This document shows positions 14,074-55,841 of a DNA stretch of 64,000 nt, in pieces (the first letter of the stretch is position 1; each line of letters opens with the position of its first letter). Under the pieces are notes generated by a model. It did not search any database and was not told the DNA's origin. It worked only from the letters and a program-made list of their open reading frames with translations. Location of the stretch: assembly GCA_001793945.1 (NCBI GenBank), contig MGIW01000004.1:26843-90842 (forward strand). Reading direction: 5' to 3'. The DNA is from Candidatus Wolfebacteria bacterium RIFOXYD12_FULL_48_21. Lineage in GTDB: Bacteria > Patescibacteriota > Minisyncoccia > UBA6257 > UBA9933. The translations under genes and the position numbers were made by a program.

Positions 14074-14138
14074 GAGTGGAACAATAAGACGGGGGGGTGT
14101 ATAATAAGGGCATATTCATTAATGCTCTTATTTTTTAC

Positions 14139-20533: not shown

Positions 20534-23500
20534 ATGTCCCATAAAAAAGGTGTATCGTTGTTTAGTATAATCACGATGGTCGGATTAATAGCCGGTGGCG
20601 TCATTTTTGGCGTTACACCTGCGTACGCCGCAGACGGATCAGGGACAAACTCCGTCACACCGACAAGTACCGATGTTAGCTCGACCGGGAATACATTCGC
20701 ATTCACATTTACGGCCGCAGAATTGATGGACTCCGGTGGCATTTCCATTTCTGTGCCAGCTGGATGGTCTGCTCCGCAAGGGACGCCGGGGGTGGCGGGT
20801 TATGCAACGACGAATTCAACCGCAGGCGTAATAGGAACTGTCCTGGCGAATGCTGACGCCACGACGGATACTGGGGGGACATGGGCAGAAGATGATAACG
20901 ATGCGTGCAGTACATTTTCCACATCAGCGACAACAAAAATAGAGGGCGCTGCTTCTGTACAATGTATTAATGCGGGAGGCCAACCCGATGATACAGATTC
21001 CTTTGGCTTGCAATATGGATCTGGTCAGAATTGGTCCGGGTATACAAAAATCGGGGTATGGCTCCGTTCAACCGTTGCAATATCAGGGGCAATAAATTAT
21101 ATCCAGGTTGCATATGACAATACTACAGGGGCACTAGGGGATGGAGGGGCATTGGAAACATTTAGCGTGCAATCATTGGCCGCAAACACATGGACATACT
21201 TCACATTTAATCTTACGGCTACACGCACTGCAGTTCAGGAGATAGGTATTGTGTGTAAGGGGTCGGGCTGTGATAGCAATACAATTTTTGTTGATTATAT
21301 TTTGATCGGCCCGGGCTCCCCGTCATTTTCTGGGTCTGGTCCATGGACAATAGATGCAAATTTCTTGGCCATGCCATCTGCCGGAACGACGACGATTACC
21401 TATGGCAGTGGAGGTGGTACGAGTGGTGTTACGGCACCGAGCACCGCAGGTGATTATACATTTACGACCCAGTCCCGTTTTGATGGCGGGGGAACGCTGA
21501 CCAATATTGCGTCATCGCCGGTCATACAGGTGCGCAACCCGGCTCCGACCATCGCAACAGTGTCGCCGACATCGACAACATATGGCGCAACACCAACACT
21601 GACGATAGCCGGTACAGGATACAATGCGAACACGACAGTAACATTCAATGGTGCGAGTAAGACACCGGCCGTTGCATCATCGACACAACTTTCGATCACA
21701 CTAAACGGAACAGATACTGCAACGGTCGGAACGACGACGATTGTAGTAACCAATCCAACGCCAGGAGGAGGGTCAGCAACCTCGACGGCTTTTGCGGTAG
21801 TCAAGGCAGATATCACAATCACATTGGGCTCATCTCTAAACCCATCTGCGTATGGTGATTTAGTAACCTTCACTGCAACTACGACCAGCGGCGTAGGAAC
21901 ACCAACCGGTGATGTCACATTCTTCGACGGCGCAACGCCGCTTGCGACCAGTACAATGACTGGCGGGGTTGCTACGCTTGCAACTTCTTCGTTAACTGTC
22001 GGTGCACACTCAATCACTGCCGTGTATAACGGCGACGCTAATTTCAATGCCAGCACCTCTGCCGCAGTAGCACAGACGGTCAATAAGGCAAACATCACCA
22101 TCACACTCGGTTCTTCACTGAACCCTTCAACCTACGGCGATTTAGTAACATTTACTGCGACCACAACCAGTGGAGTTGGAATGCCAAGCGGCACGGTCAC
22201 CTTTAAAGACGGAGGCGTTGCATTTGCAACAAGTACATTGACTGATGGGGTAGCGACGCTGGCAACAAGTACGCTTTCTATAGCAACGCATTCCATAACT
22301 GCAACATACAACGGCGACGAGATCTTCAATGCCAGCACCTCTGCCGCAGTAGCACAGACGGTCAACAAGGCAAATATCACAATCACGCTCGGCTCGTCAT
22401 TGAATCCATCTACCTACGGTGATTCCGTTACCTTCACCGCAACAACCACAAGTGGGGTGGGGACTCCAAGCGGAACCGTAACATTTAAAGACGGAGTTAC
22501 AAACTTAGCAACGAGCACATTGACTGGGGGAGTTGCAACATTTGCAACCGACGCATTAACTGTTGGTACGCACTCAATCACCGCTGTGTATAACGGTGAT
22601 ACCAACTTCAACGCAAGTACATCCGCCGCAGTTTCGCAGGTAGTGAATAATCCTACTCCGATAATTACGCTACTTTCCCCAAACACTATCGAGGAGGGAA
22701 GCGCTACGACTTCATTAACGATTAGTGGAAGTCAATTTGCGAGCGATGCAACAGTTACATTTGATGGAACACTCCTAATAATAGATACGCAGTCATCGAC
22801 TACTATTGATACCACTATCCCGGCATCACTATTGACCGCATTTGGAACTTCGACAGTTGCGGTTATCAATGCGGCTCCGGGCGGAGGAACGGCGACATCT
22901 TCATTTATTATAACGCGCGGCGCGGTAAAATTTGCATTTAGCGGTGCTCCGTATAGCGGTACCGTAGACGCGTCGATTACGGTAACGATACAGGCACAGC
23001 GCGAAAACGGAACAGTGGTGACCAATTATCAAAACGATGTAACGCTCGATGTAGGCGGTTCTGCAACACCGGAAAGTGTGCTGGTCAACATTATCAATGG
23101 CGCGGGGACGACGACCATAGCAAACACGGTAGCGGAAACGGTAACGCTTTCACTAACAGATACGCAGGGAACGGGCTTGGATGTAACTGCGACAACATCG
23201 GCAACATTTGCACACGGTGCAATAACGCAATTCACGCTTGCGGGACCGGCAACGCTCAATGTGGGTGACCGCGCAGCATTTACAACGACGAGAAAGGATC
23301 AGTACGGCAATCCGGTGACCAGCGGCCCGGATACCACGGTATATTTCTATACGACATCGACTTCATCATCGGCAGTATTTTACGACGCCGCAATCGATGG
23401 AACCGTGATAACCTCAGCGATCATTGGATCGGGAGCAAGCACGACAATGGCATGGTATTACGATGAAGAGCCGGGCGTGTATACGATCACCGCATCGGAC

Positions 23501-26500
23501 AATGGAACGGCCCCCGACGGCAATACGGGCATTGACGATGCAACCAGTACGCTGACCGTGAACGCAGTAGCGACTCGCTTCGTGATCATCGATCCGACCG
23601 ATGGCACGGTAGATGCGTCGATCACGGTGGTGGTACAGGCACAGGATAACCTCGGCAGAATTATTACGGACTATCAGAACGATGTGACACTGATCGCGTC
23701 AAGTACGGGTGGACAAGTGAACGCAACCAGCACATTGATCAATATTGTGAATGGCTCCGGTACGACGACCATATCAAATACCATAGCGGAAACGGTATCC
23801 CTTTCGCTACTGGATTCGCAGGGTGCCGGATTGAATGTCGCATCATCAACGCAAGATGTGGTGTTTGCGCCGGGAGCGGTGGCGCAATTTTCACTGACGC
23901 ATAGCGGCGACATGGAGCAGAACACGCGCAAGGAATTTGTCGCGGGGCGAAAGGATCAATATGGAAACTTCGTAAGTGCAAGCACGACCCCTGCGTATGT
24001 GTATGCAAGTCCGACCAGTACGGCAAAGTTTTATGATGCCGATGCGGGTGGCAATGAGATTACCTCTATCGCATTTACGCCCGGTAACGCGACGACCAGT
24101 TTCTGGTTCTATAGCAACACGCCGGCAACAACGACTATAACGGTCTCAGATAATGCGACCGCACCGGACGGCGATACGGGTATCGATGATGCAACAAATG
24201 AAATCTTGGTGACGCCGACCGCGGTGCGGTTTGAGATCGTCGATCCGACCGACGGCACGGTAGACGCGGCAATCACGGTCACCGTTCGGGCATTGGATGA
24301 GTTCGGACAGGTAGTGCCGAGCTTTACCGAAGATGTAACGCTGCTGGTGACGGGGAGTGCGGTCGCCAATCCGGTATTGATTGATATTGAAAACGGAATA
24401 GGAACGACCCAAGTAAGCGATACGGTTGCGGAAACCGTAACATTGTCGTTGTCGGATACGCAAAGCACGGGCCTCGCGGCGACATCGACACAGAATGTGA
24501 TATTTGCGGTAGGTGTATTTGCAAAGTTGAATCTGAACAATGTGATCAATGCGACGGCCGGGGATCTGGTCGCTTACACGGTCACGCGTACCGATCAATA
24601 TAATAATCAGATAACCGGCGGCTCGATAACGGTAGCCCTTTCGGCAACCCCAACAACAACCCCGGGTACATTTTATAGTAGCAACTCGACTTCAAGTTCG
24701 GTGATCACATCGGTAGCGATCGATGCCGGAAATGCTTCGGCGCAATTCTGGTATTACAATGAAGTGGCAGGGTCGTATCAGGTTACCGCGCAAAGTGGCG
24801 CAGTGATCGGATATGATGATATCGTGATCGACCCGGCAGCAATCGCCAAGTTTACGATCAATGATCGCACCAGTATGAATCCGGCGAGTCGCGTGCAATA
24901 TACGGTGGTGCGCAAAGATCAATTCAATAACTTGGTAACCACGGGCAATACAACGGCGTATCTGTATGCCGATCCGGCTGGGACTGGTACCGCATTTTAT
25001 GATGCTGCGACGAACGGCAACGCAGTAACAAGCGTAACGATTGGCAGTGGCCAATCATCGCAAAGCGCATGGTATTATGAAGAGACCAGCGGCAATCACA
25101 CGATTACCGCTTCGGATAACGCGACCGCGCCGGATGGAGCGGCGGGTATTATTGATGCTACCGATGTGATCTCGGTGCAGACTGCAACCGGAACACGGTT
25201 TATGTTTGAGCCGGAACCGGATCCGCAAACATTAGCAGCGGGAGCGTCTTCATTGGTGACGATCCAGGTGCAGGATGACTTTGGAAATATTGATACGAAT
25301 TATCAGAATGATGTGACACTGGTCACGGGCGTGACATCGGTAAGCGGTACCGGATTGACTGATGGGCAGGCATTGATCAACATCGTCAACGGTGAAGGAA
25401 CTATCACGCTGACCGACACGGTCGCCGAGACCGTTAACTTGGCGCTGTCTGATACGCAGGGAACGGGGTTGGTTGTGACCGACACTGCGTCGATCACATG
25501 GACCGCCGGAGCGGTGTCGCAGTTCACAATCACCGATCAGACCAGTATAGTGGCGGGGACGAGTACGCCGTACACCGTAACAAGAAAGGATCAATATGGA
25601 AATGTGGTGACCTCGGGAAGCAACCTTGTGTACTTATATACCAATTCAACGGGCGCACAGGCCCGATTTCAGACAACGGAAACAGGAACGACCTCGATAT
25701 CATTTGTGACGCTTGCAAGCGGGTTTGCATCGACGACATTCTATTATTACGACGAAGAGGCGGGCACATGGGATATCACCGCATCAGATAATGCGACTGC
25801 TTCTGACGGAGCAACAGGGATTGACGATGCATCAGATTCACTGATCGTAACGGCGGCCCCGGTCGTGGCGGATCGGTATGTGATACTCGACCCGGCAGAT
25901 GCAGGGTTGAACGAGGTGACGGTCGTGATCGTTCAGGCACAAGATGCCGATGGCGGATTGGATACGACCATCCAGGAAGATATTTATTTGGTCTTTAGTA
26001 CATCATCGATACAGACCGCAGGACTTGTCGGCCAGCGCGTTCAAGTGAGTATGGTGGACGGTATTGGTACGGTATCAATCCAGGATACCGTAGCGGAAAC
26101 AGTGCAGCTTTCATTGGAGCGATTAGCTGGCTCAACCTCGACATTGGCGATCACATCAACGCAGGATGTGATGTTCTTCGTGCGACAAACATTTGGAGGT
26201 GGAGGTGCGGGCGGAGGCGTATATGTCGCTCCGACCGCGATATTTACGGGCCGGGCCTATCCGGGGGCGACTATTGTATTGTTTGCGCGCATAGGAGGAC
26301 AGGATATTCCGCTTGAGCGTAATATTGAGGTGCGGGCGGATGGTACATTTACCGTAGATTTTTCTGGCGAGTTGCGCGGGCTGGAATCGTTCGGGCTTGC
26401 CATCTTGGACAAGGACGGAAAGATTGCGCAGATCAAGACCTATACTATGGATAAGATAACGCGCGCGACCGAAGAGAAAAATCTGTACATCGCGCCGACT

Positions 26501-26944
26501 GCGGAATTAGTATCGCGCACGGTGACTATTGGTAATAATGTCGGACTCACGGGTTCTGCCGCGCCGGGGAGTGTGGTAAAGGCTGAAGTTGACGGACAGG
26601 CGGTTGACGCGCAGGCGACGGCAGGAAACAACGGCGCATATAGACTCTTGGTCAATACGCGAGATCTTTCCTATGGAGGACATATTATTCGAACCAAGCA
26701 GGTTGATAAAAATGGGGTTGAGAGTGATTGGTCCCCATTGAAAGTGTTTATGGTCACGCGCACATTGGTCACGCGGGCCGACTTGAACAATAACGGAGGT
26801 ATAGATATCGGCGATTGGAGTATCTTCCTTACGCGATTTGGATCGATCAATGCGGAAGAAAAACGGCAAGTAGATTTGAACGATGATGGCAAGGTCGACA
26901 TATCAGACTTTAGTATATTCATCCGGTCTGCAATCAACAGGTAA
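20534..26944 (+). CDS. Giant (2136 aa) surface protein: N-terminal anchor/signal, Ig-like repeat arrays, C-terminal dockerin domain
   Basis: Three roughly 95-aa Big-like repeats (21790-22645) and six roughly 290-aa repeats (about 22900-26100), repeated at DNA level; C-terminal tandem Ca-binding loops DLNNNGGIDIGD and DLNDDGKVDISD each followed by an amphipathic helix, canonical type-I dockerin. Confidence 0.9.
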   Translation: MSHKKGVSLFSIITMVGLIAGGVIFGVTPAYAADGSGTNSVTPTSTDVSSTGNTFAFTFTAAELMDSGGISISVPAGWSAPQGTPGVAGYATTNSTAGVIGTVLANADATTDTGGTWAEDDNDACSTFSTSATTKIEGAASVQCINAGGQPDDTDSFGLQYGSGQNWSGYTKIGVWLRSTVAISGAINYIQVAYDNTTGALGDGGALETFSVQSLAANTWTYFTFNLTATRTAVQEIGIVCKGSGCDSNTIFVDYILIGPGSPSFSGSGPWTIDANFLAMPSAGTTTITYGSGGGTSGVTAPSTAGDYTFTTQSRFDGGGTLTNIASSPVIQVRNPAPTIATVSPTSTTYGATPTLTIAGTGYNANTTVTFNGASKTPAVASSTQLSITLNGTDTATVGTTTIVVTNPTPGGGSATSTAFAVVKADITITLGSSLNPSAYGDLVTFTATTTSGVGTPTGDVTFFDGATPLATSTMTGGVATLATSSLTVGAHSITAVYNGDANFNASTSAAVAQTVNKANITITLGSSLNPSTYGDLVTFTATTTSGVGMPSGTVTFKDGGVAFATSTLTDGVATLATSTLSIATHSITATYNGDEIFNASTSAAVAQTVNKANITITLGSSLNPSTYGDSVTFTATTTSGVGTPSGTVTFKDGVTNLATSTLTGGVATFATDALTVGTHSITAVYNGDTNFNASTSAAVSQVVNNPTPIITLLSPNTIEEGSATTSLTISGSQFASDATVTFDGTLLIIDTQSSTTIDTTIPASLLTAFGTSTVAVINAAPGGGTATSSFIITRGAVKFAFSGAPYSGTVDASITVTIQAQRENGTVVTNYQNDVTLDVGGSATPESVLVNIINGAGTTTIANTVAETVTLSLTDTQGTGLDVTATTSATFAHGAITQFTLAGPATLNVGDRAAFTTTRKDQYGNPVTSGPDTTVYFYTTSTSSSAVFYDAAIDGTVITSAIIGSGASTTMAWYYDEEPGVYTITASDNGTAPDGNTGIDDATSTLTVNAVATRFVIIDPTDGTVDASITVVVQAQDNLGRIITDYQNDVTLIASSTGGQVNATSTLINIVNGSGTTTISNTIAETVSLSLLDSQGAGLNVASSTQDVVFAPGAVAQFSLTHSGDMEQNTRKEFVAGRKDQYGNFVSASTTPAYVYASPTSTAKFYDADAGGNEITSIAFTPGNATTSFWFYSNTPATTTITVSDNATAPDGDTGIDDATNEILVTPTAVRFEIVDPTDGTVDAAITVTVRALDEFGQVVPSFTEDVTLLVTGSAVANPVLIDIENGIGTTQVSDTVAETVTLSLSDTQSTGLAATSTQNVIFAVGVFAKLNLNNVINATAGDLVAYTVTRTDQYNNQITGGSITVALSATPTTTPGTFYSSNSTSSSVITSVAIDAGNASAQFWYYNEVAGSYQVTAQSGAVIGYDDIVIDPAAIAKFTINDRTSMNPASRVQYTVVRKDQFNNLVTTGNTTAYLYADPAGTGTAFYDAATNGNAVTSVTIGSGQSSQSAWYYEETSGNHTITASDNATAPDGAAGIIDATDVISVQTATGTRFMFEPEPDPQTLAAGASSLVTIQVQDDFGNIDTNYQNDVTLVTGVTSVSGTGLTDGQALINIVNGEGTITLTDTVAETVNLALSDTQGTGLVVTDTASITWTAGAVSQFTITDQTSIVAGTSTPYTVTRKDQYGNVVTSGSNLVYLYTNSTGAQARFQTTETGTTSISFVTLASGFASTTFYYYDEEAGTWDITASDNATASDGATGIDDASDSLIVTAAPVVADRYVILDPADAGLNEVTVVIVQAQDADGGLDTTIQEDIYLVFSTSSIQTAGLVGQRVQVSMVDGIGTVSIQDTVAETVQLSLERLAGSTSTLAITSTQDVMFFVRQTFGGGGAGGGVYVAPTAIFTGRAYPGATIVLFARIGGQDIPLERNIEVRADGTFTVDFSGELRGLESFGLAILDKDGKIAQIKTYTMDKITRATEEKNLYIAPTAELVSRTVTIGNNVGLTGSAAPGSVVKAEVDGQAVDAQATAGNNGAYRLLVNTRDLSYGGHIIRTKQVDKNGVESDWSPLKVFMVTRTLVTRADLNNNGGIDIGDWSIFLTRFGSINAEEKRQVDLNDDGKVDISDFSIFIRSAINR

Positions 26945-32824: not shown

Positions 32825-32876
32825 AGCTTCATAAAATGAATGACAACGCATCGGAAGCGATGTATAATAAGTACAT

Positions 32877-33320
32877 ATGAAAATCGCACAACAATTTCCA
32901 CAATTCAAAAAGGAACGGGCGTTGCTGATCCTCACCGGGACACAGGAAGCCGAGTTCTATCTTGCTGGAGACGGGCTGATAGAAAAAGTAGAAATGTTTC
33001 GAATCCCGCGTATCCGTTATTCCGGCAACGAAGGCTTGGCGGTGCGCCCCGGGAAGACGGGCGTTACGGGCGGCAGTTCCAAGTCAACCAAAGAACAATA
33101 CCAGCAGGAATTCACGGCAAAGTTCAAGACCACAGTAAAGCAGGTAATTAACAGAACGATCCCTACGCAAATTACCATTATCTCACCAATCATGGGCGAG
33201 ATCGAACAGATACTGCCGATTGCATCAAAGAAATCGGTAACGATGCGATTAAAAAAGAACCTCTGCGAACGCCATCCGGAAGAAATACTTGGCCATATAC
33301 AAAAGGCATTGGGTAAGTGA
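32877..33320 (+). CDS. Hypothetical protein
   Basis: 147-aa ORF; TATAAT 8 nt upstream of ATG (leaderless-like); no recognisable domain. Confidence 0.5.
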   Translation: MKIAQQFPQFKKERALLILTGTQEAEFYLAGDGLIEKVEMFRIPRIRYSGNEGLAVRPGKTGVTGGSSKSTKEQYQQEFTAKFKTTVKQVINRTIPTQITIISPIMGEIEQILPIASKKSVTMRLKKNLCERHPEEILGHIQKALGK

Positions 33321-33417: not shown

Positions 33418-34386
33418 TTAAATTTTTTTCCCCTTAATCACTTCATTCAATATGCGCTTGACGCCATCAAGGCTCTCCCAATTATAGACCGAAATAGGAA
33501 CAACGGTCGGATTGAGTTTTTTAAGAAGCGATATCTTTTCATTGAGATCTGCCTCGGTAACCATGTCGCTCTTGCTGAGAAACAGGAACTCCTTCTTGGT
33601 AAGTAGGGCAGGGTTGTGTGCTCCGAGTTCCGAGCGAATGACCGTATAATCGTGGACCGGGTCGGGGGAGTCGGCGGGAACCAAGTGGAAAAGGATTTCC
33701 GTGCGTTCAATGTGGCGAAGAAACCTGTCCCCTAAGCCCTTTCCTTGGCTCGAGCCTTCGATCAGGCCGGGGATGTCGGCGAGGATCAATTCGTAATAAA
33801 CGCCAAGGTTCGGTTCGAGCGTGGTAAACGGATAATTGCCAACCTTGCTTTGTGCGTTGGTCAGTTCGTTGAGCAGGCTGGATTTGCCGGCGCTGGGCAG
33901 GCCAATGATGCCGACATCGGCGATCAACTTCAGCTCCAGCCGAAACATGAACTCTTCTCCCGGCGTGCCGTCTTGGTATTGGGTCGGACTGGTATTGACC
34001 GATGATTTGAAGTGAAAATTGCCCTTGCCACCCTTGCCGCCCTTGGCGATGACGATGCGCTCACCGATCTTGACCAGCTCGTAGTCTGCTCCGGTGGTCA
34101 TATTGTGGATAATGGTGCCAACAGGAACCTTGAGTATGAGATCGGCTCCGGTGTGACCATCGTTGAATTGGGGTTTTCCGGGCTCACCGCTTTCGGCCGA
34201 AATATCCTTTTTGAACCGGAATTGGTTGAGCAGGCTCAAGTCCGAGGCGGCCTCAACAACGACGTTTCCGCCATTACCGCCGCTTCCGCCGGCAGGACCG
34301 AGACTCTTCATATTCTTGTTAAAAGCTACGGCTCCGCGCCCTCCACGGCCGGAACTTGCCTTGATTACGACATCATCGATCAACAT
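33418..34386 (-). CDS. obg: GTPase Obg/CgtA
   Basis: Obg-fold Gly-rich N-domain (GGxGGxGG repeats) and G-domain GLPSAGKSSLL; the C-terminal OCT/TGS extension is not evident. Confidence 0.92.
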   Translation of the reverse strand: MLIDDVVIKASSGRGGRGAVAFNKNMKSLGPAGGSGGNGGNVVVEAASDLSLLNQFRFKKDISAESGEPGKPQFNDGHTGADLILKVPVGTIIHNMTTGADYELVKIGERIVIAKGGKGGKGNFHFKSSVNTSPTQYQDGTPGEEFMFRLELKLIADVGIIGLPSAGKSSLLNELTNAQSKVGNYPFTTLEPNLGVYYELILADIPGLIEGSSQGKGLGDRFLRHIERTEILFHLVPADSPDPVHDYTVIRSELGAHNPALLTKKEFLFLSKSDMVTEADLNEKISLLKKLNPTVVPISVYNWESLDGVKRILNEVIKGKKI

Positions 34387-34503
34387 AGTGGAATTACTAT
34401 AGCAGAGTATGGGGATATTGACAAGGTGTCTGATTTGTTATATATTGACCATTAGCACAAGGCGTAAAAAATACCCACACATATACGGAAGGAGGTGATT
34501 TGG

Positions 34504-34533
34504 TTGACATGTAACGGAAATTGCGGCGGTTGA
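34504..34533 (+). other. Tiny ORF 1 (TTG-TCNGNCGG-stop) behind a perfect 11-nt SD AAGGAGGTGAT
   Basis: SD 34489-34499 then 4-nt spacer and TTG; speculative. Confidence 0.2.
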
Positions 34534-34624
34534 GGCGGATGTAGTGCAAGCGGTCGCTTGTGCTGACAAATAGTCCGGGAGTTTCACAAAAATACAGATA
34601 CACACAAAAGGGAGGTGATTCCGT

Positions 34625-34687
34625 ATGGTAGGAACAAACCGAAGATGGAGACTCGCGACGGTCAGTCACTGCGAAGACGGCTGTTGA
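34625..34687 (+). other. Tiny ORF 2 (MVGTNRRWRLATVSHCEDGC, 20 aa) behind a second GGGAGGTGATT SD
   Basis: SD 34610-34620, 4-nt spacer, ATG; followed by ORF 3 (34690-34734, MGRPDLTILPPRKQ) and a terminator. Confidence 0.25.
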
Positions 34688-34742
34688 CGATGGGGCGTCC
34701 GGATCTGACGATCTTGCCGCCCCGAAAACAATAGTTGCATAC

Positions 34743-34767
34743 CCCGGCTTAGGCCGGGGCTTTTTTT
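34743..34767 (+). terminator. Rho-independent terminator ending the small transcript
   Basis: ccccggcttaggccggggcttttttt. Confidence 0.85.
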
Positions 34768-34860
34768 ATTCGGTATGTGGTATACTTAAGGAAAGATCTG
34801 CCGCGTGGTCGAAGCGACAGCATAAAAGTTGGTATCATAATAAAGCACCCATGTAATGCT

Positions 34861-35301
34861 ATGAAGCAACAGACTATTGTCATAAGCGGTGTGGTAGTAT
34901 TGATACTCGGAGCGGCTTGGTATGGAATCGCGCAATTATATCCAAGCCAAAATGCACAAGCGCCGGAGGCGAGAACTGTCGTGGTCACGCTTGAACAACA
35001 AAACAATTCGGGCGAAACAGGGACTGCGACACTGACGGCCGTCGGCGGAAAAACACAGGTCGAGTTGCGGTTGACGGGCGCACCGGCAGGCATTGTGCAG
35101 CCGGCGCATATTCATACGGGAACATGCGCAAGTATAGGTGGTGTAGTGTATCCGCTGGTATTCCCGGTAGATGGAGTATCCGTTACAACACTTGATATAT
35201 CATTGGATACGATCTTCACTGAGTTGCCTATGGCAATCAATGTGCATAAATCGGCACAAGAGGCGGGTATCTATTATGCGTGCGGGGATATTGCCAAATA
35301 A
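34861..35301 (+). CDS. CHRD-domain protein with N-terminal TM anchor
   Basis: AHIHTGTC and NVHK motifs typical of the CHRD domain; ORF-track start 34777 is too early, first ATG after the terminator/promoter is 34861. Confidence 0.65.
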   Translation: MKQQTIVISGVVVLILGAAWYGIAQLYPSQNAQAPEARTVVVTLEQQNNSGETGTATLTAVGGKTQVELRLTGAPAGIVQPAHIHTGTCASIGGVVYPLVFPVDGVSVTTLDISLDTIFTELPMAINVHKSAQEAGIYYACGDIAK

Positions 35302-35311
35302 GGATGCTCAA

Positions 35312-35343
35312 AAAACACCCGGAAGACGAAGGGTGTTTTTTTG
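35312..35343 (+). terminator. Rho-independent terminator
   Basis: aaaaacacccggaagacgaagggtgttttttt. Confidence 0.8.
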
Positions 35344-35369
35344 TCATTCCACGAAAAGCGGTATATAAT
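35341..35369 (+). promoter_or_regulatory. Consensus promoter TTGTCA-17-TATAAT, 6 nt upstream of ATG 35376 (leaderless mRNA)
   Basis: Exact -35/-10 spacing; ATG begins about at the predicted TSS. Confidence 0.6.
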
Positions 35370-35375
35370 TGCCGT

Positions 35376-35831
35376 ATGACAAGGGAGCTAATCGACCAGA
35401 TCCAAAAAAAGATAGTGCATCTGTTGAAAAAGGTGGGGGACCGACCGCTCCCGGTTTTGGTACAAAAATATTGCGATGAAATAGTTCATTTGGCCGGTAA
35501 TTGGATCCTCGACGAGCTTCCCACCGCGCGAATCTATATTGTCAAAGGAATTATCGATCGGCACACGCACCATGACCTTTTGATCGTTGAATATGGCGGA
35601 AAGGCGTATGTGATCGACCCGGCCGTATGGCGGTTTTTTAAGGGGAAAAAAACGATATTGATGACGACAAAGCACACTATGCCAGAGGCATTAATAGAAA
35701 TACAAAAACTCTACCACGGCATTTGGCGCATTTCGGAACGCATGGAAAAAAGCGGTTTTGAGCGACGGCATGAGTGGGAACGGCGGGTTGAAATAAAAGT
35801 TGACGAAGCGATGCACGACATGGCATCCTAA
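35376..35831 (+). CDS. Hypothetical protein
   Basis: 151-aa ORF directly behind the consensus promoter; no recognisable domain. Confidence 0.55.
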   Translation: MTRELIDQIQKKIVHLLKKVGDRPLPVLVQKYCDEIVHLAGNWILDELPTARIYIVKGIIDRHTHHDLLIVEYGGKAYVIDPAVWRFFKGKKTILMTTKHTMPEALIEIQKLYHGIWRISERMEKSGFERRHEWERRVEIKVDEAMHDMAS

Positions 35832-35842
35832 CGCGCACGGTC

Positions 35843-37000
35843 ATGAAAATAAAACAGGAGCAAAAAAAAGCGCATTGCGCTGTATGCGTGGTATCGGGGA
35901 ATGTACAACGGGAGTGGATCACGGCGGTAGGGATCATTGTGATGGGGACTGTTGTCTACCGCATGATGCTTAAAACGGGGGCGCTGGATGCATTTGCTCC
36001 CGGCGATGCAAATATTACATTTGGCGTTGCATTATTGATCGGCGTGGTTGCGTCGCTTTCTTCATGTATGGCGACGATCGGAGGCGTAGTGGTTGCATTC
36101 GCGCAGAAATATATTACGACAGAGGAGCGGACATGGCGATCAACCCTCAGACCGCATACGGCATTTCACATAGGTCGCATTGGGTCTTTCTTTGTACTTG
36201 GAGGGGCATTGGGGGCGATCGGGGGTACGATACATATCAGCGGGAATATGATAGCGCTGTTCAACATCGCGATTGCGATCGTTATGGCGTGGCTTGGATT
36301 GAATATTCTTGGGCTGGCGCCTTCGATTGCGCGGGCCGGTATTCGCATGCCAAAGCGTATACGAACGATATGGGACACGATGGGTAATTCGAACCGCGCA
36401 AGCACCCCATTTGTGCTGGGAGGGCTGAGTTTCTTTCTGCCCTGTGGATTTACACAAAGTATGCAACTGTTTGCGTTGGCCTCGGGAAGCATGTGGATCG
36501 GCGGTATGAGTATGGCGCTGTTTGCGGTTGGCACTGTGCCGGCCCTGTTAACGCTCGGCGTGGCAAGTGCATGGTCATCAAAGCTCAACGGGGGGATATT
36601 TAAAAAGGTTGCCGGACTCGTAGTTCTGTTGTTCGCAATCACGATCTTTAATGCGGGTCATGCTACATGGGTGAACCCATTTTCGCAAAATGTCGGCGCA
36701 AGGAAGGCTATGGTAATAGAAACGGCTCCATCGGGAGAAATACAGATAGTGCATACAAAGATAGTGCCTACGGGGTTTGATACGGAAACGACCAAGCTAA
36801 AAAAGGGCGTCCCGGTAAAGTGGATCATCAGTGCGGAACAACCAAACGGCTGCACAAATCGCATTATTGTGCCGTCTTTGGGGATATCTAAAGATATCGA
36901 GGTGGGTGATAATGTCGTATATTTCACCCCCGAAGAAGACGGCAAGTTGCCGTTCAGTTGTTGGATGGGTATGGTGCGCGGAGAATTTACCGTCAAGTAA
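35843..37000 (+). CDS. DsbD/CcdA-like transmembrane protein with N-terminal CxxC and C-terminal extracytoplasmic Cys-containing (cupredoxin/heavy-metal-like) domain
   Basis: Conserved Cys in predicted TM1 (SSCMATIGG) and TM4 (FFLPCGF) as in the CcdA/DsbD_2 family; C-terminal about 110-aa soluble domain with NGC...SCWMGM. Confidence 0.5.
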   Translation: MKIKQEQKKAHCAVCVVSGNVQREWITAVGIIVMGTVVYRMMLKTGALDAFAPGDANITFGVALLIGVVASLSSCMATIGGVVVAFAQKYITTEERTWRSTLRPHTAFHIGRIGSFFVLGGALGAIGGTIHISGNMIALFNIAIAIVMAWLGLNILGLAPSIARAGIRMPKRIRTIWDTMGNSNRASTPFVLGGLSFFLPCGFTQSMQLFALASGSMWIGGMSMALFAVGTVPALLTLGVASAWSSKLNGGIFKKVAGLVVLLFAITIFNAGHATWVNPFSQNVGARKAMVIETAPSGEIQIVHTKIVPTGFDTETTKLKKGVPVKWIISAEQPNGCTNRIIVPSLGISKDIEVGDNVVYFTPEEDGKLPFSCWMGMVRGEFTVK

Positions 37001-44422: not shown

Positions 44423-44504
44423 ATTATGCACATTTTGTGATTACCGTGGATATAAAAATGGTGTATACTTTATGGATAAGAGACGCCAATAGTATGCAGC
44501 GCAC

Positions 44505-46769
44505 ATGAAATTACGCATGTCTATAAAAACGAAGGTTATTATCGGTGTTGTCGTGACTACGGCATGCTTCGGCGTGCTTATGGCTATCACCGCAACGCGG
44601 GTGGCGGATCGGGTCATCACCGACATAGTATTAAAGCACACCGCAATGGTCGTCACGCAACAAAGGGATGTTATCGAGGGCGTGTTTGCGGATTCGATCG
44701 GTTTCGCGCGCAATATCAGTTTACAGCAACCAATTATAACATACTTACAACTATCCGATCCGCAAGAGCAAGATCCCACGCTACTTGCGCATTTAACCAA
44801 TAGCGATGCGAACAAGCACTACCAAGCGGTCTATGTCATGGACAAAGCAGGTAAAACACTTGTTTCTACCGATCCATCATTTGTCGGGCAAAATTATGCG
44901 TTCCGTACCTACTTCAAGGGGGCAATATCCGGCGCATCAACCGTAGATGCCGCTATCGGCGTAACCAGCGGCAAATTTGGTTATTATTTTTCGCATCCGG
45001 TAAAAGCGCCTTCGGGGGAGATTGTTGGCATAGTTGTGGCAAAATTAAAGGAAGACCTGATCACCGATGCATTGAGGCCCGACGACTTGAGCGCGGAGGG
45101 TAACGCGATACTCGTAGACAAATATGGCGTCGTAATACAGGCAAAGAAAAGAAATTTGCTTTTTAAAAGTTTGGGGAAGTTACCCCCAAATGTCCTTCGG
45201 GAAATAACGGAAGAGAAACGATTCGGAGGTATCGACATACAAGCCATGCATTACGACGAAGTCGCTCGCGAGATCGCGGGACTGGGGGAGTCGCGCGAAT
45301 TTATAGTATATGATCAGATGCATGCGCGCGATGAGCTGGTAGGAATGGCCCGCATACCTAATACTCCCTTTTTTATAGTCATAACGGAACTGCGCCAATT
45401 TTTTACGGAAGCAGCCGACAAGGCGGTACTTGGTATGGGGATATTTATTTTCGTAGCATCACTTGGCATGGGAATTGTGGTGACAATGCTGCTGCTGTTA
45501 GTGGTACGCCCGCTCCGCGCGTTGCGGGACTCATTACTGCAAACAGTAAAGGGAATCGGCGCGCAGCCACATATCATCAAAACAAGCGATGAGTTCGAAG
45601 ACATAAGCGCTACGCTCGCCGCGGCAATGAACCAAATCAAGAAAGCGCACGGGGCTATGGAAAATAAGCTATGGGAGCGCGCCGCGGATTTCGAAAAGTT
45701 CAAACTTGCCGTGGAAAGTGCCTCCGACCATATCATCATCACCGATATCGATGGGCATATTCTTTACGCAAATAAAGCAGCCGAAGCGACGACAGGATAT
45801 TCGCGCAATGAAATGATCGGCAACCGCCCGTCATTATGGGGGCGACAGATGAAAAAAGAGTTTTATGAAACGATGTGGTCTACCATAAAGGAACAAAGGC
45901 AGCCCTTTCATGCGGAAGTTACAAATCGTCGGAAAAACGGGGAGATCTATGAATCGGATATGCATATTGCTCCGCTCCTTACCGATAAGGGCGATGCGCG
46001 GGGCTTCGTAGGAATAGAACGCGATATTACGGCGCAAAAAAATGCAGATCGGGCGAAGACGGATTTTGTATCGATCGCGTCGCACCAATTGCGCACGCCG
46101 CTTGCGGCGATCAATTGGTATGTGGAAATGTTGTCAGATGAAGATGTCGGCCCGATCAATGCCATACAGCGTAAATATCTCGATCAGATCCATGTAGCGA
46201 GTGCGCGCATGGTCGAGTTGGTCAGCTCATTGTTAAGCGTATCCCGCATCGATACTGGATCGCTTCACTCGGAGCCGGCTCCGGCACTCCTGTCAGATAT
46301 AGCCGATTCTGTCATGGATGAACTGAGTCAATTCGCAGAAAAAAGACGCATCAGCGTCAATAAAGAGTATGCAAAAAATATGGGCACGATCAATGTTGAC
46401 CCAAATATGATGCGCGTAGTTCTTCAAAATTTGCTTTCGAATGCGCTCAAATATACGCCAGAAAAGGGGTCTGTTACGGTGTCCATAAAAAAGGTATATG
46501 GGCAAGCGGTCATAACCGTATCCGATACAGGTTACGGCATCCCTGCAAACCAGCAATCGCAGATTTTCACCAAATTCTTCCGCGCGGACAATGCCCGCAA
46601 AAAAGAGCCTGAGGGTAACGGCCTTGGTCTCTATATAACAAAATCGATCATCGACCATGTACGGGGAACAATAGGATTTGTATCTACGGAGGGAAAGGGA
46701 AGTACATTTCGCATAACACTTCCACTTCCGGGCGAGGTCGCAAAAACCAATAGGAAGGATCGCGCATAA
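44505..46769 (+). CDS. Sensor histidine kinase (TM - Cache-like periplasmic domain - TM/HAMP - PAS - HisKA - HATPase_c)
   Basis: PAS (DHIIITDIDGHILYANKAAEATTGY), H-box FVSIASHQLRTPL, N/G boxes NALKYT, GNGLGLYI. Confidence 0.9.
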   Translation: MKLRMSIKTKVIIGVVVTTACFGVLMAITATRVADRVITDIVLKHTAMVVTQQRDVIEGVFADSIGFARNISLQQPIITYLQLSDPQEQDPTLLAHLTNSDANKHYQAVYVMDKAGKTLVSTDPSFVGQNYAFRTYFKGAISGASTVDAAIGVTSGKFGYYFSHPVKAPSGEIVGIVVAKLKEDLITDALRPDDLSAEGNAILVDKYGVVIQAKKRNLLFKSLGKLPPNVLREITEEKRFGGIDIQAMHYDEVAREIAGLGESREFIVYDQMHARDELVGMARIPNTPFFIVITELRQFFTEAADKAVLGMGIFIFVASLGMGIVVTMLLLLVVRPLRALRDSLLQTVKGIGAQPHIIKTSDEFEDISATLAAAMNQIKKAHGAMENKLWERAADFEKFKLAVESASDHIIITDIDGHILYANKAAEATTGYSRNEMIGNRPSLWGRQMKKEFYETMWSTIKEQRQPFHAEVTNRRKNGEIYESDMHIAPLLTDKGDARGFVGIERDITAQKNADRAKTDFVSIASHQLRTPLAAINWYVEMLSDEDVGPINAIQRKYLDQIHVASARMVELVSSLLSVSRIDTGSLHSEPAPALLSDIADSVMDELSQFAEKRRISVNKEYAKNMGTINVDPNMMRVVLQNLLSNALKYTPEKGSVTVSIKKVYGQAVITVSDTGYGIPANQQSQIFTKFFRADNARKKEPEGNGLGLYITKSIIDHVRGTIGFVSTEGKGSTFRITLPLPGEVAKTNRKDRA

Positions 46770-46776
46770 TACCAAT

Positions 46777-49014
46777 ATGAAAACATTCAAACGACTGACA
46801 ATTGGGTTTAAAATAATGAGCGCGCTGACCGCGATTTTATTATTGGTAATCGGAACGAGCGTGGCGACATTTATTATGCAAAAAAACCGCATATCCGATG
46901 CGATATTTGCGGAGCTGACGCTTATAAACAATGCGTCGCGCGTCGTACTGCTCGATGTAATAGACGGCATACAGCGCCGAACGATAGACTTTTCTTCTGA
47001 TGGATTCATTCGGGATGCTACGCAAGAAATAGTACGAACCGGGAAACAAGAAGTGATCGACGCGCTCGGGGAACACCTCAAGAAAAACAAACTTGCGCTT
47101 GACTCGGCAATGTACGGCATCAATATATTAGATCGTTCCGGCACGGTAGTCGCATCCACCGATGCGCAGGAAATAGGCAAGGACGGATCACAATATGTTA
47201 AAGAACTGCAATCGGAAGATTTTATCTTTGGCGCCACGCAAGTAAGCGACTTTATTGCAACGGACAGTTTTGGGGTCTCTACGATCGCTTTGGCGGTAGC
47301 GGCACCGCTCACTGATAAGATCGACGGAAAACGGATCGGCACATTGGTAAGTTTTATCAAAGCGGGTAGCGTTGCCGACGCACTAAAGATCAAAAGTGAT
47401 CTGTTCATAGGGATTGACGAGCGATATGCATCTATGAACCTATTTTTGGTAAATAAGGACGGCTATGTCATTGATGACCAGTTTTTCAATGGCATGCGTT
47501 TGACGCGCCAAGCCGATATTGCCACAATTCTGCAATGCAGTTCGCAAAAAAGTTACACGAATGCGCAGGGAGATGAGGTCATCAGTGCCGCTCTGTGCAT
47601 GGAAAATGGCTGGACGCTGGTGACGGAAATTTCGGAAACGCAGGCCATGCAATCGATAGAAGAGACGCGTCAAAGTCTGATCTATTTGGCGGCGATACTC
47701 TCTTTATTGATACTAGGAATCATCTATCTTGTGAAAAAAAGGATCGTCGACCCCATTAAAGTGCTCGCATATGCCGCACAAAGGATGGGTGAAGGGGATT
47801 TTGATATACGAACCCATATCGGGACATCCGATGAGCTGGGCGATCTTAGCGCGGCGTTTAACGATACCGCCGAGAAACTGAGGGATTCCCATATCGTGCT
47901 TGCCAAAAAAATACGCGAAGTAACGGAAGATTTTAAAAAATTCAAGCTGGCCGTAGATGGCACATCGGACCATGTTATCATTACCGATATGAATGGAGCG
48001 ATACTCTATGCGAATAGGGCTGCGGAATTGACCACAGGGTATACACGCAAAGAAATCATCGGGAGCACTCCGGCCCTGTGGGGAAAGCAAATGCCGCAAG
48101 AATTTTATAAAACCATGTGGAGCGCCATTAAGGAACAGCGCAAAAGCTTCTCTGGTGAAATAACCAACAAACGCAAGGATGGACAGCTCTATGTAGCCGA
48201 AACGCATATCTCTCCGCTTTTTGACGAGCAAAACAACCCTTACGGGTTCGTGGGAGTGGAGCGGGATATTACGCGGCAAAAGGAAATTGACAAATCAAAG
48301 ACGGAATTCGTCTCCATCGCATCCCATCAGCTGCGCACGCCATTGACCATCATTAATTGGTATATTGAAATGCTGTCCGACCAGCAAGGCGCAGCGCTTT
48401 CCGAAAAGCAAAGACAATATCTTGAAGAAATAACGCACGCGAGCAAACGCATGATTGAGCTAGTCAACGCCTTGCTGAATGTTTCACGCATCGACATGGG
48501 AACATTTATGGTAGATGTGGAACCGCTTGATTTTTCACTTGTAATGGATGATGTACTGAAAGATCTGTCGCTGCAGATCGCACAGAAGGACCTGCACATC
48601 GCAAAGAATTACGACAGATCACTACCCCGTATCAATGCTGATCTGAAGTTGCTGCGCATCATTTTCCAAAACCTACTCACGAACGCAATCAAATATACGC
48701 AGAACGGTGGTTCCATCATGATCGAATTAAATAAAAGAAGTTCAAGCATTACAATCAGCGTAATCGATGACGGATTCGGCATTCCAGTGCACCAGCAAAA
48801 CAAGATATTCTCGAAGTTCTTTCGGGCAGACAATGCGCGGGAAAAGGAGCCTGATGGAAACGGACTTGGTCTGTATATCGTGAAATCGCTCGTGGAACAT
48901 TCCGGCGGAAGAATATGGTTCATATCGGAAGAAAACAAAGGAACGGCATTCCATGTGGAAATTCCGCTTGCAGGCATGAGGGCAAAGGAAGGCTCCAAGC
49001 CGCTGGCAGCCTGA
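46777..49014 (+). CDS. Sensor histidine kinase, tandem paralog of the upstream kinase
   Basis: Same architecture; PAS DHVIITDMNGAILYANRAAELTTGY, H-box FVSIASHQLRTPL; sensor domains diverged. Confidence 0.9.
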   Translation: MKTFKRLTIGFKIMSALTAILLLVIGTSVATFIMQKNRISDAIFAELTLINNASRVVLLDVIDGIQRRTIDFSSDGFIRDATQEIVRTGKQEVIDALGEHLKKNKLALDSAMYGINILDRSGTVVASTDAQEIGKDGSQYVKELQSEDFIFGATQVSDFIATDSFGVSTIALAVAAPLTDKIDGKRIGTLVSFIKAGSVADALKIKSDLFIGIDERYASMNLFLVNKDGYVIDDQFFNGMRLTRQADIATILQCSSQKSYTNAQGDEVISAALCMENGWTLVTEISETQAMQSIEETRQSLIYLAAILSLLILGIIYLVKKRIVDPIKVLAYAAQRMGEGDFDIRTHIGTSDELGDLSAAFNDTAEKLRDSHIVLAKKIREVTEDFKKFKLAVDGTSDHVIITDMNGAILYANRAAELTTGYTRKEIIGSTPALWGKQMPQEFYKTMWSAIKEQRKSFSGEITNKRKDGQLYVAETHISPLFDEQNNPYGFVGVERDITRQKEIDKSKTEFVSIASHQLRTPLTIINWYIEMLSDQQGAALSEKQRQYLEEITHASKRMIELVNALLNVSRIDMGTFMVDVEPLDFSLVMDDVLKDLSLQIAQKDLHIAKNYDRSLPRINADLKLLRIIFQNLLTNAIKYTQNGGSIMIELNKRSSSITISVIDDGFGIPVHQQNKIFSKFFRADNAREKEPDGNGLGLYIVKSLVEHSGGRIWFISEENKGTAFHVEIPLAGMRAKEGSKPLAA

Positions 49015-51951: not shown

Positions 51952-52026
51952 ATGCCTCGCCGTTGTAGGGCATGGTACTATCGGATATACTATAAGGAGT
52001 AACACATTTGGGGAGAAGATTTATTT

Positions 52027-53694
52027 ATGCACAAAATTATTGTACTGCTAAAAAGCAAGTTGTTCATTGCGCTCGCGTCAGTCGCGGTCATTATCGGCGG
52101 CTATACCATCTATCAAAACACGCGCCCGCAGACATACCCGACCGTACCGGTAAGCCGTGGCGCCATTCGCGAAGAGGTGAACATTACCGGCAAGGTGAAG
52201 CCGGCACAAAACCTCGATATCGCATTCGAAAAGGGCGGCCGCGTTTCACGCATCCGTGTCAAAGTAGGCGATGCGGTGCGGGCAGGCCAAGAGGTCATAC
52301 AATTAGATAATGCGGATCTCTATGCCCAGCTTGCCCAAGCGCGGGCAAATGTCCGTTCGCAAGAAACAAAGCTTGAACAGCTCACCATAGGCGCTCGCCA
52401 AGAAGACCTTGCCATATCGCAGGCACGCGTAGACAACGCAAAGATAGCACTCGCCGATGCACAGCGCAATTTAGCGAATGTCACAGAAAAGGCGGCCATC
52501 GACCTTGCGAACACCTATAGCTCGGTATCCGACACACTGACGGACGCTTACACAAAATCGGACGATGCTATTCGCAATCAGATAGACAATCTTTTTTTGT
52601 ATGACGAAACGGATCGTCCGACGCTTTCGTTCGTTTCGTACAACAGTCAGGCAAAAATCGACTCGGAATCGGGGCGTGTGCGATCGACCGACCATCTGAA
52701 GGATTTTTCAAAAGAGCTGAATGCGATCAAAGGTACGAATGGAGACACGACCGGGCTGGATACGGCACTCGATAATGCGAAGATTCATTCGGGCATATTT
52801 TTGGATTTTTTCAGCGACCTGCAAGATGTGGTTAACAGTCCAAACAGTCTGAATGCCACAACACTCGCATCCTACCAGTCGGCCGTCTCGGCGGCGCGCA
52901 ACACCATCGTCACGACAGCGACAAATGTAAACAAACAACGCCAATCCATAGCGGCTCAAAAATCCACGAACCAAAGCGCCATATCAAATGCGCAAGCAAG
53001 TATCACAACTGCGCAAACCTCGCTTGACCAAGCAGAACGCGAACTAACCCTAAAAATAGCGGGTGCTTCGGCGCAGGACATAGCATATCAAAAAAGTCAG
53101 GTAGAAAACGCACGGGCAAATGCCGATTACTATCAGGCACAAATAGACAAAACCATTCTCAAGGCGCCATTTTCGGGAACGGTAACCAAAGTCGTTCCAA
53201 CGATAGGGGATATCGTTTCACCCAATGTGTCCGTAATCTCGGTCATTGGATCAGGACGCTTTCTTATCGAATCCTATGTGGCTGAGGCGGATATCGCAAA
53301 GGTCAAGGTCGGCAACACGGCCAAAGTGACTCTCGACGCGTATGGCTCGGATGTCATATTCGATGCGCAGGTCATATTGATAGACCTATCGGCGACCACA
53401 CTTGAAGGTGTCGCCACCTACAAGACCACCTTTGAGTTCGTACAGGAAGATGTCCGCATTCTTTCTGGACTTACGGCAAACATAGATGTTCTGTCGGGTG
53501 AGCGCGCAAATGTACTATACGCGCCGACGAGAAATATCACTTCGCGAAGCGGAGCCAAATATATAAAACTGCTTACTAACAGAGCAAAGGGAATCGTCGA
53601 AGAGGTCGAGGTGGTCACCGGATTGCGTGGGTCCGACGGGCGCACGGAAATCGTTTCGGGAGTAAAGGAGGGCGACGCCATAGTAACAAATTGA
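52027..53694 (+). CDS. HlyD/MacA-family periplasmic adaptor (membrane fusion protein) with extended coiled-coil
   Basis: N-terminal TM, biotinyl-lipoyl-like halves (GKVKPAQN..., TILKAPFSGTV), about 250-aa coiled-coil insert, beta-barrel C-terminus. Confidence 0.85.
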   Translation: MHKIIVLLKSKLFIALASVAVIIGGYTIYQNTRPQTYPTVPVSRGAIREEVNITGKVKPAQNLDIAFEKGGRVSRIRVKVGDAVRAGQEVIQLDNADLYAQLAQARANVRSQETKLEQLTIGARQEDLAISQARVDNAKIALADAQRNLANVTEKAAIDLANTYSSVSDTLTDAYTKSDDAIRNQIDNLFLYDETDRPTLSFVSYNSQAKIDSESGRVRSTDHLKDFSKELNAIKGTNGDTTGLDTALDNAKIHSGIFLDFFSDLQDVVNSPNSLNATTLASYQSAVSAARNTIVTTATNVNKQRQSIAAQKSTNQSAISNAQASITTAQTSLDQAERELTLKIAGASAQDIAYQKSQVENARANADYYQAQIDKTILKAPFSGTVTKVVPTIGDIVSPNVSVISVIGSGRFLIESYVAEADIAKVKVGNTAKVTLDAYGSDVIFDAQVILIDLSATTLEGVATYKTTFEFVQEDVRILSGLTANIDVLSGERANVLYAPTRNITSRSGAKYIKLLTNRAKGIVEEVEVVTGLRGSDGRTEIVSGVKEGDAIVTN

Positions 53695-53703
53695 TAGGCA
53701 CAT

Positions 53704-54474
53704 ATGCATGAAACAAATAGCGCAAGCAAAGAAAAACATTCCCATAAAGATCGTCCACTCGTTCTTTCAACAAAGCACCTGCGAAAGGTGTACATGATCG
53801 AGGACATAGAGGCGGTAGCGCTGCGCGACATATCCCTTGATATTCACGAGGGGGAATTTGTATCCATCATGGGTCCGTCAGGGTCGGGAAAATCAACCTT
53901 ACTGCAGATACTCGGCTGCTTGGAGCGGCCAACTGAAGGAGCCTATCTGCTCGACGGGAAAGATCTCGAACATTATTCCGACGATGAACTCGCGCGAATA
54001 CGCAATAAAAAGATCGGATTTGTGTTTCAAGCGTTCAATCTCTTGCCGCGTCTTTCGGTCATCGAAAATGTAAAGCTTCCGCTTGTCTATGCCGACATCC
54101 GCGAACCGGAACGCACGAATATTGCCCGCGATATCATCCGCATGGTCGGCCTGTCCGAGCGGGAGCAATTTCCTACGGTAAAGCTGTCCGGCGGACAAAA
54201 ACAGCGGGTAGCCATCGCGCGCGCACTGGTAAACGATCCGAAGGTAATTTTTGCCGATGAGCCCACCGGGAGCCTTGATTCAAAATCAGGAGCCGTCATC
54301 TTGCAGTTCCTGCAGGATCTGCACGAACAGGGTCATACCATTGTCATGGTCACGCATGAATCTTATGTTGCGGCGGTCGCCGAACGCATCATCCATATAA
54401 AAGACGGGCTTATTGAAAGTGATGAATGGGTCGAACATCGCCATCGGGTAAAAAATGACGATCTGATCAAATAA
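53704..54474 (+). CDS. ABC transporter ATP-binding protein (MacB/LolD-type)
   Basis: [35 protein letters not shown]. Confidence 0.92.
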
Positions 54475-54478
54475 ATAC

Positions 54479-55823: not shown

Positions 55824-55841
55824 AAAGATACTACACATACT

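Follow-up and report, generated by a model that had tools for sequence, protein, structure and literature searches.

Does the gap of 474 nucleotides (nt) between obg (33418-34386, minus strand) and a CHRD-domain gene (34861-35301) in Candidatus Wolfebacteria bacterium RIFOXYD12_FULL_48_21 hold a regulatory RNA, or is it a messenger, and if so for what? We addressed this question for positions 34387-34860 of a window of 64,000 nt (contig MGIW01000004.1, positions 26,843 to 90,842), a gap in which no gene is annotated in any of the eight public assemblies shown (0 in 8/8). An earlier sequence-only reading had placed here a terminated plus-strand unit of ~310 nt divergent from obg, which our analysis supports with only off-by-one differences in detail (the terminator starts at 34742). 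Taken together, the features described below and their conservation suggest that this unit is an independently transcribed, strongly expressed mRNA of ~315 nt for tiny Cys-rich proteins and not a regulatory RNA, a reading to which we assign a probability of roughly 0.7. The features of the unit, with its two open reading frames (ORFs), are as follows.

34418-34446, plus strand: promoter of the mini-mRNA, TTGACA-17-TATATT, a near-consensus sigma-70 promoter with 11/12 consensus matches
34467-34499, plus strand: A/C-rich leader and Shine-Dalgarno (SD) site 1, with the SD AAGGAGGTGAT at 34489-34499
34504-34566, plus strand: ORF1, with TTG at 34504, an in-frame TGA at 34531-34533 and a second in-frame TGA at 34564-34566
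34542-34565, plus strand: hairpin resembling a selenocysteine insertion sequence (SECIS), with a stem of 10 base pairs (bp) and a GGUC tetraloop at 34552-34555, the loop starting 18 nt after the TGA
34588-34620, plus strand: second A/C-rich stretch and SD site 2, with the SD GGGAGGTGATT at 34610-34620
34625-34687, plus strand: ORF2, with an ATG start, 20 amino acids (aa; MVGTNRRWRLATVSHCEDGC) and TGA at 34685-34687
34692-34723, plus strand: hairpin H2, GGGGCG..GGAUC-UGAC-GAUCU..CGCCCC, just 3' of the ORF2 stop
34742-34767, plus strand: intrinsic terminator, CCCCGGC-TTAG-GCCGGGG (34742-34759) with 7 G-C pairs, then T7

Contigs were collected by way of Obg homologues of 87-100% identity, and the region upstream of obg is represented in them by 12 distinct versions, all from the same Wolfebacteria genus (the Obg protein of the window itself is found on groundwater assemblies from the Rifle aquifer). 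Promoter, SD site(s), small ORF(s) (sORFs), hairpin and terminator recur in all 12 versions, and because they recur in this way in related genomes we consider that the unit did not arise by chance. ORF2, the core gene, is present in 12/12 versions and ORF1, an accessory cistron, in six, which represent part of the genus (the window, L008, L132, L133/L142, L136 and L139). One of these versions deserves a remark of its own, as the Obg protein of L008 is 100% identical to that of the window while its upstream region (1-459, against window 34387-34860) is only 84% identical, which suggests either recombination or an sORF region that evolves much faster than obg.

The coding interpretation is carried above all by ORF2. 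Its products are 18-27 aa long and follow the pattern M-W-T-x5-L-x2-V-x-[H/R]-C-(K/E)-(E/D)-G-C plus 0-8 further residues, which includes a C-x3-C motif, and in the 12 versions the residues M, T, C, G and C are invariant. Extra states are distributed 25/27/47 over the three codon positions, the third having about twice as many as the first or second, with a pN/pS ratio of 0.45 at a pS that is saturated at 0.69. Changes in length come as whole codons, for example as a four-codon S-C-x-x insertion, in contrast to the spacer between the ORFs upstream of SD site 2, where we observe indels of 1 and 2 nt. Judged by these substitution patterns ORF2 is under purifying selection as a peptide and is protein-coding, and because the 12 versions show peptide-level conservation, wobble-biased substitution and codon-sized indels, the mini-mRNA is best read as protein-coding and not as a structured RNA. 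The suggestion that the two SD-led tiny ORFs are coding candidates is thus borne out by conservation, as SD spacing, start codons and peptides are all kept with wobble-biased substitution among the relatives (six genomes for ORF1 and 12 for ORF2). The same was not found for a 14-aa ORF inside the GC-rich hairpin (ATG at 34690), which had also been put forward as coding; no SD precedes it, and L132 and L139 are without its ATG.

The structure of the RNA gives little to set beside this. When the whole transcript was folded against shuffled sequences it was not unusually structured (z = -1.38), a search of the window with Rfam 15 gave no match at the gathering score and only terminator-like noise at expectation values (E) up to 10 within 34300-34900, and no tRNA or tmRNA was found at the locus. 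What is kept is the 3' end. A stable hairpin lies at the ORF2 stop or a few nt after it in 12/12 versions, followed by the intrinsic terminator, which is present in every version with compensatory changes in its stem; in L129 and L145 the 5' arm of the hairpin starts within ORF2, so that the stop codon lies in its loop. The arms of H2 vary widely (GGGGCG/CGCCCC, GGGGUG/CACCCC in L132, GGGCGA/UCGCCC, GGGUAGCAGGUC/GACCUGUUACCC and AGGAUGACGAAU/AUUCGUCAUCCU), as does its distance from the ORF2 stop (about 11-18 nt). Since the arms differ with compensatory changes, it is the structure that is kept and not the sequence, and we infer that H2 is a 3'-end or stability element.

The translation signals are exceptional for this genome. 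The 9-mer GGAGGTGAT occurs twice in 64 kb, both times at this locus, where 0.30 occurrences are expected, and only 1/100 shuffled controls contained at least two copies. Both 11-nt SD matches (34489-34499 and 34610-34620) were confirmed, as was the duplication of the A/C-rich motif upstream of them (AAAAATACCCACACA / AAAAATACAGATACA, copies 121 nt apart). The start codon of ORF1 lies 8-9 nt after GGAGG in 6/6 of the loci that carry it, and the ATG or TTG of ORF2 lies 8-10 nt after GGAGG in 12/12 versions. By comparison, only 2/15 neighbouring genes with clear start codons have an SD-like motif, and in several a TATAAT-like box stands 6-9 nt ahead of the ATG, which makes them look leaderless; because of this count the strong SDs are indeed unusual here, as had been proposed. 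Examples of the box without an SD are obg (34386-34424, minus strand), a 147-aa gene (32860-32877, plus strand) and a 151-aa gene (35355-35378, plus strand), and leaderless mRNAs seem to be common in this genome. A HAD gene at 40679 is among the few genes with an SD (GAGGAGG). We also considered a long-range pairing of 8 nt (34483-34490 with 34619-34626) that would mask the start of ORF2 and rejected it, as it is not kept in L008.

Transcription would start from a promoter that faces that of obg.

34396-34424, minus strand: obg promoter, TTGTCA-17-TATAGT, running 34424->34396, with 10/12 consensus matches

The -35 hexamers of the two promoters overlap on opposite strands, and the face-to-face arrangement described earlier was found at the sequence level as proposed. 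The obg boxes at -35 and -10 are kept in 12/12 related loci, and the obg ATG (34386) lies 9 nt beyond the -10 box, which makes obg near-leaderless. On the plus strand ATTGACAAGGT and TTATATA are invariant in an alignment of related loci and equally so in the loci with a single sORF. The expected transcription start is near 34453, and from the positions of promoter and terminator the unit would span ~315 nt, from ~34453 to 34767 on the plus strand.

Several observations weigh against giving the mini-protein reading more than the probability stated above. The sORF family was seen in one genus only, and in an outgroup, L150 (Obg 70% identity), the corresponding gap is only 74 nt and is without the sORF element. 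Scans of the peptides against Pfam and NCBIfam, with selenocysteine written as Cys, gave no match, and because peptides of 18-27 aa match nothing in these databases their function is read from composition alone. In a JGI (Joint Genome Institute) metagenome scan for the ORF1-plus-hairpin pattern we obtained one true match (L142, the same as L133) and four chance ones. A metagenome scan with a degenerate pattern of the ORF2 core returned 0 matches. The locus is outside every described RNA or protein family searched (Rfam, Pfam, NCBIfam).

What does ORF1 encode? It reads M-T-C-N-G-N-C-G-G-[TGA]-G-G-C-S-A-S-G-R-L-C-stop, and its product would be a Cys/Gly-rich peptide of either 9 aa (MTCNGNCGG) or, with selenocysteine (Sec), 20 aa. 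The 9-aa TTG ORF with C-x-G-N-C of the sequence-only reading is present as it was placed; what had been overlooked is a possible read-through of its TGA and the SECIS-like hairpin. In all six versions the in-frame TGA is at the same codon, and in 5/6 the frame stays open to the second conserved TGA. In the four codons past the first TGA (11-14) we find extra states of 0/2/6 by codon position (binomial p ~0.02), for example GGC/GGA/GGT, GGA/GGT/GGC and TGT/TGC, such that nearly all variation beyond the UGA falls on wobble positions. Flanked by hypervariable codons (TGC/CGC/CCC/CAT and CAA/CTA/TCG/TCA), the second TGA itself is constant; L139 alone lacks it, a version in which the frame stops earlier, two codons past the first TGA, and which has an insertion of 24 nt, or 8 codons. 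The hairpin core AAGCGGTCGCTT is identical in 6/6 versions, even in L139, in which it is not part of the ORF and is non-coding, and its GGUC loop follows the first TGA by exactly 18 nt in 6/6, with stems of 6-10 bp and, depending on the version, minimum free energies between -7.8 and -15.9 kcal/mol. No other GGUC-loop hairpin of the window is as strong, and this one agrees on every criterion with the published consensus model of the bacterial SECIS (PMC13188914). The wobble bias, the invariant second TGA, its loss only in L139 and the invariant hairpin together argue that the first TGA is read through. In the window there is one other strong GGUC-tetraloop hairpin (15096-15115, plus strand, 8 bp, ttcggtacGGTCgtactgaa); it lies within a 403-aa ORF (14088-15296), the nearest upstream TGA is out of frame, and it is probably there by chance.

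If read-through occurs, it could most simply be explained by selenocysteine. SelB and Sec-tRNA(Sec) would bind the GGUC hairpin and insert Sec at UGA 34531-34533, giving a 20-aa selenopeptide M-T-C-N-G-N-C-G-G-U-G-G-C-S-A-S-G-R-L-C with a C-G-G-U-G-G-C centre, an arrangement of Sec between Cys residues that is typical of redox and metal sites. The layout is that of the SECIS of Escherichia coli fdhF, where a short hairpin likewise lies beyond an in-frame UGA, with 18 nt between this codon and the GGUC loop (TGA-N18-GGTC; the fdhF sequence was checked against 5,419 E. coli genomes). ORF1 differs from fdhF-type genes in that its product would be only 20 aa with no known Cys-form homologue, its hairpin stem is without a bulged U, and its host phylum is without reported Sec use; the agreement is in the cis features. 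There is precedent for tiny selenoproteins with a C-terminal Cys-Sec pair: KCU-star (NF033934), DUF466 YbdD/YjiX and SaoC are very small or C-terminal Cys-Sec / Cys-Cys tail proteins described by Haft and co-workers (bioRxiv 10.1101/2022.07.06.499078). As in ORF1 and ORF2 these are small, carry a Cys/Sec cluster as their business end and are usually mis-annotated as truncated or missed, though they have no sequence similarity to the peptides of the locus. Overall we hold the selenopeptide tentatively, at somewhat below even odds.

This restraint comes from a number of points that speak against Sec. Neither selA, selB, selD nor tRNA-Sec was found in the 64-kb window with Pfam and ARAGORN, and the Sec machinery was equally absent from 20 related loci; the window is at most 10% of the genome. 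No Cys-for-Sec homologue and no Sec/Cys pair was found, all six ORF1 homologues having TGA; a scan of a genome collection for C-x-G-x-C-G-G-[U/C]-G-G-C (TGY allowed) gave chance Gly/Cys-rich proteins among the matches listed. Only 8 substitutions in 5 sequences enter the wobble test, and the hairpin puts a constraint of its own on codons 15-19. The sample is small, no Rfam family was matched at E up to 10, and nowhere in the full-text literature searched is Sec use reported for Patescibacteria, Parcubacteria or the Candidate Phyla Radiation.

A further point concerns ORF2, whose TGA is also followed by a hairpin loop starting 18 nt downstream, with a second in-frame TGA inside that loop. Selenocysteine at this codon was considered and judged improbable: in other lineages the aligned codon stands for Thr, Ile, Pro, Met or Arg, L147 has TAG right after the conserved G-C, L133 is without any later in-frame stop, and the sole synonymous change beyond it (GGC->GGT, L132) is matched by a compensating change in the hairpin (CGCCCC->CACCCC). 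In all likelihood, then, ORF2 ends at this TGA as at any stop codon, and because this TGA-plus-hairpin is evidently just a stop, a hairpin in such a place belongs to the general design of the locus, which again counts against Sec in ORF1.

The strongest rival follows directly, namely that the first UGA of ORF1 is itself an ordinary stop, the product is the 9-aa MTCNGNCGG and the hairpin is an intercistronic or stabilising element like H2, with the coding-like pattern past the stop due to chance or to constraint on the RNA. We consider that this comes close to an even chance. It agrees with the same layout at ORF2, with L139, where the frame ends two codons past the first UGA and the locus is nevertheless retained, and with the minimal genomes of Patescibacteria, for which Sec use is unreported. 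It leaves unexplained, however, the 0/2/6 wobble bias, the invariant second TGA and its loss only beside an earlier stop, and the fixed GGUC loop and 18-nt spacing, whereas the sequence and spacing of H2 vary freely. A small remainder of probability falls to other forms of read-through of the ORF1 UGA. Also rejected were a single 77-codon ORF from 34504 through both TGAs to TAG at 34732-34734 (the two ORFs are separated by an unconserved spacer with indels of 1 and 2 nt); TGA read as Gly or Trp in an alternative code (long Pfam-supported genes end in TGA and are without in-frame TGA); antisense ORFs of 90 and 55 aa on the minus strand (interrupted by stops in relatives); and an antisense frame that shares the wobble positions of ORF1 (in 4/6 versions the conserved stretch is not preceded by a start codon).

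Next in order is the possibility that the peptides are precursors or partners of an enzyme encoded nearby.

35376-35831, plus strand: 151-aa protein gene, with its own TATAAT box and a leaderless ATG

The sequence-only reading had found no obvious modification enzyme adjacent to the locus, which has to be revised in view of this candidate (public assemblies annotate it with 175 aa, but its homologues begin at ATG 35376). In 11/11 loci with enough flank the gene is encoded on the same strand 0-3 genes downstream, at a distance of 277-2091 nt from the start of obg, and it is absent in the outgroup L150. Among 5.8 billion proteins its family accounts for just 17 clusters; none falls below 72% identity to the window protein, and all members with an organism name are from Wolfebacteria. 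Invariant are C33 (at a helix N-terminus), H65, H66, D67 and D81. An AlphaFold model (pLDDT 78, pTM 0.76) best matches the vasohibin tubulin carboxypeptidases VASH1/2 (probability 0.9-0.99, TM-score 0.48, E 0.007-0.05), with weaker matches to other papain/transglutaminase-like Cys enzymes including C39, Josephin and AvrPphB-type peptidases, and the protein is predicted to be a vasohibin-like (papain/transglutaminase-like) Cys-His-Asp enzyme.

This predicted enzyme is a reasonable candidate for one that would trim the variable peptide tail after ...E-G-C, or modify the peptides otherwise, in a minimal pair resembling those of ribosomally synthesised and post-translationally modified peptides (RiPPs). 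The gene is as genus-restricted as the sORFs and lies near them in every locus just counted, the invariant Cys at a helix N-terminus is accompanied by invariant His and Asp, the best fold matches are peptidases, and the C-terminus of ORF2 beyond G-C varies from 0 to 8 residues. The arrangement also resembles vasohibin and SVBP, a transglutaminase-like Cys peptidase and its small protein partner, in predicted fold, in Cys-His-Asp order and in having a small peptide gene beside the enzyme gene. It differs in that identity is 11-19% at a TM-score of 0.48, the protein is 151 aa against about 250, and its link to the peptides is a candidate only. The fold matches are weak, the sORFs and the 151-aa gene are separate transcription units, their co-occurrence may be plain synteny among close relatives, and we observe neither leader/core architecture nor another RiPP gene nearby, with no transporter or radical-SAM/YcaO-type gene within 5-10 kb. 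For these reasons we regard the pair as unlikely. If ORF1 does give a selenopeptide, it may work together with the ORF2 mini-protein and the vasohibin-like peptidase.

Far less probable are the two regulatory readings that had been proposed for the unit. The order of sORF, hairpin and terminator does resemble an attenuator, in which the sORFs would be leader peptides that control read-through of the terminator into the gene downstream, and trpL is a leader-peptide attenuator in which a tiny ORF is likewise followed by hairpins and a terminator. However, the gene directly downstream varies by lineage, being the CHRD protein here and the 151-aa gene or unrelated genes for 136-185 aa elsewhere, and it has its own -10 box and a leaderless start; a downstream gene that changes in this way and is separately promoted leaves no fixed target for a leader-peptide attenuator, which can be set aside. 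Nor is there a conserved alternative pairing of the antiterminator kind that trpL has, the complement between 34483-34490 and 34619-34626 not being kept in L008, and we therefore consider attenuation very improbable. Least likely of all is a non-coding small RNA that titrates ribosomes or the 16S anti-SD by means of the two strongest SD matches in the window, as each SD stands at a working distance (8-10 nt) from a conserved start and an ORF conserved at the peptide level, relatives with a single sORF carry one SD only, and neither the fold (z = -1.38) nor Rfam gives a structural signal. The closest known counterparts among small transcripts that encode sORFs are SgrS/SgrT, RNAIII/hld and SR1/SR1P; like these the unit is a ~300-nt transcript with its own promoter and terminator and tiny ORFs, and it differs in showing no sign of a base-pairing regulatory domain, in its peptide-level conservation and in having two cistrons.

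The surroundings of the locus offer some observations of their own. Downstream on the plus strand (34861-37000) lie the CHRD gene (34861-35301) and a gene for a DsbD_2 membrane protein fused to a cupredoxin-like domain (35843-37000), both present or absent by lineage between the sORF locus and a UvrD-like helicase, and this zone is a variable insertion zone, possibly related to copper or thiol redox. On the other side, a 147-aa protein (32877-33320, plus strand) adjoins obg in every related locus and has weak, sub-threshold Pfam matches to baeRF_family12 and Host_attach of the eRF1-like release-factor superfamily (E ~0.015), which is curious beside a possible stop-codon read-through. Further away, a secreted protein of 2,136 aa (20534-26944, plus strand) with many repeated Ig-like/Thr-rich modules and a dockerin-like tail stands ahead of a 571-aa protein that has a weak Big_13 match, and the pair look like large cell-surface genes. 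At 44493-49014 (plus strand) there are two tandem overlapping PAS/HisKA/HATPase sensor kinase genes, one Cache-type and one HAMP-type, with an HlyD/ABC/MacB-FtsX export set (52003-57083) further on.

Combining these observations we infer the following course of events, in which transcription, translation, UGA decoding and a metal-binding or redox role are all read from the sequence. RNA polymerase would choose between two promoters with a common -35 region, the overlap being seen in the sequence and the competition presumed from it, and the plus-strand promoter would give the ~315-nt mRNA. Its unstructured A/C-rich leader and extended SDs would recruit ribosomes efficiently in a genome that is mostly SD-less or leaderless, such that ORF2, and ORF1 where present, might be translated into Cys-rich peptides of 9-27 aa (with C-x3-C, His and possibly Sec), the UGA of ORF1 probably being decoded, most simply as selenocysteine via the GGUC hairpin 18 nt downstream. 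Judged by composition, metal binding or a thiol/selenol redox function would be the most plausible role of the peptides. H2 and the terminator would close the transcript, define its 3' end and probably stabilise it, and at present we can only speculate that the 151-aa Cys-His-Asp enzyme processes the peptides.

Genomes of the Candidate Phyla Radiation are annotated almost without genes of fewer than 30 codons, and this gap holds what appears to be a translation unit with signals among the strongest in the region. The locus would give a new conserved family of mini-proteins (18-27 aa, Cys-x3-Cys), an example of a genome that mostly does without ribosome-binding sites and yet uses very strong ones selectively, and a testable candidate for selenocysteine use in a phylum without a reported case. 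Should the Sec reading prove false, the conserved hairpin and the coding-like pattern past the stop would still need explaining. Should it prove true, the Candidate Phyla Radiation (Patescibacteria) would have its first selenoprotein in ORF1, and with it the first evidence of Sec decoding; ORF1 would also be among the smallest known selenoproteins, a natural 20-residue selenopeptide with a symmetric C-G-G-U-G-G-C centre that would alter our view of what minimal, symbiotic bacteria invest in.

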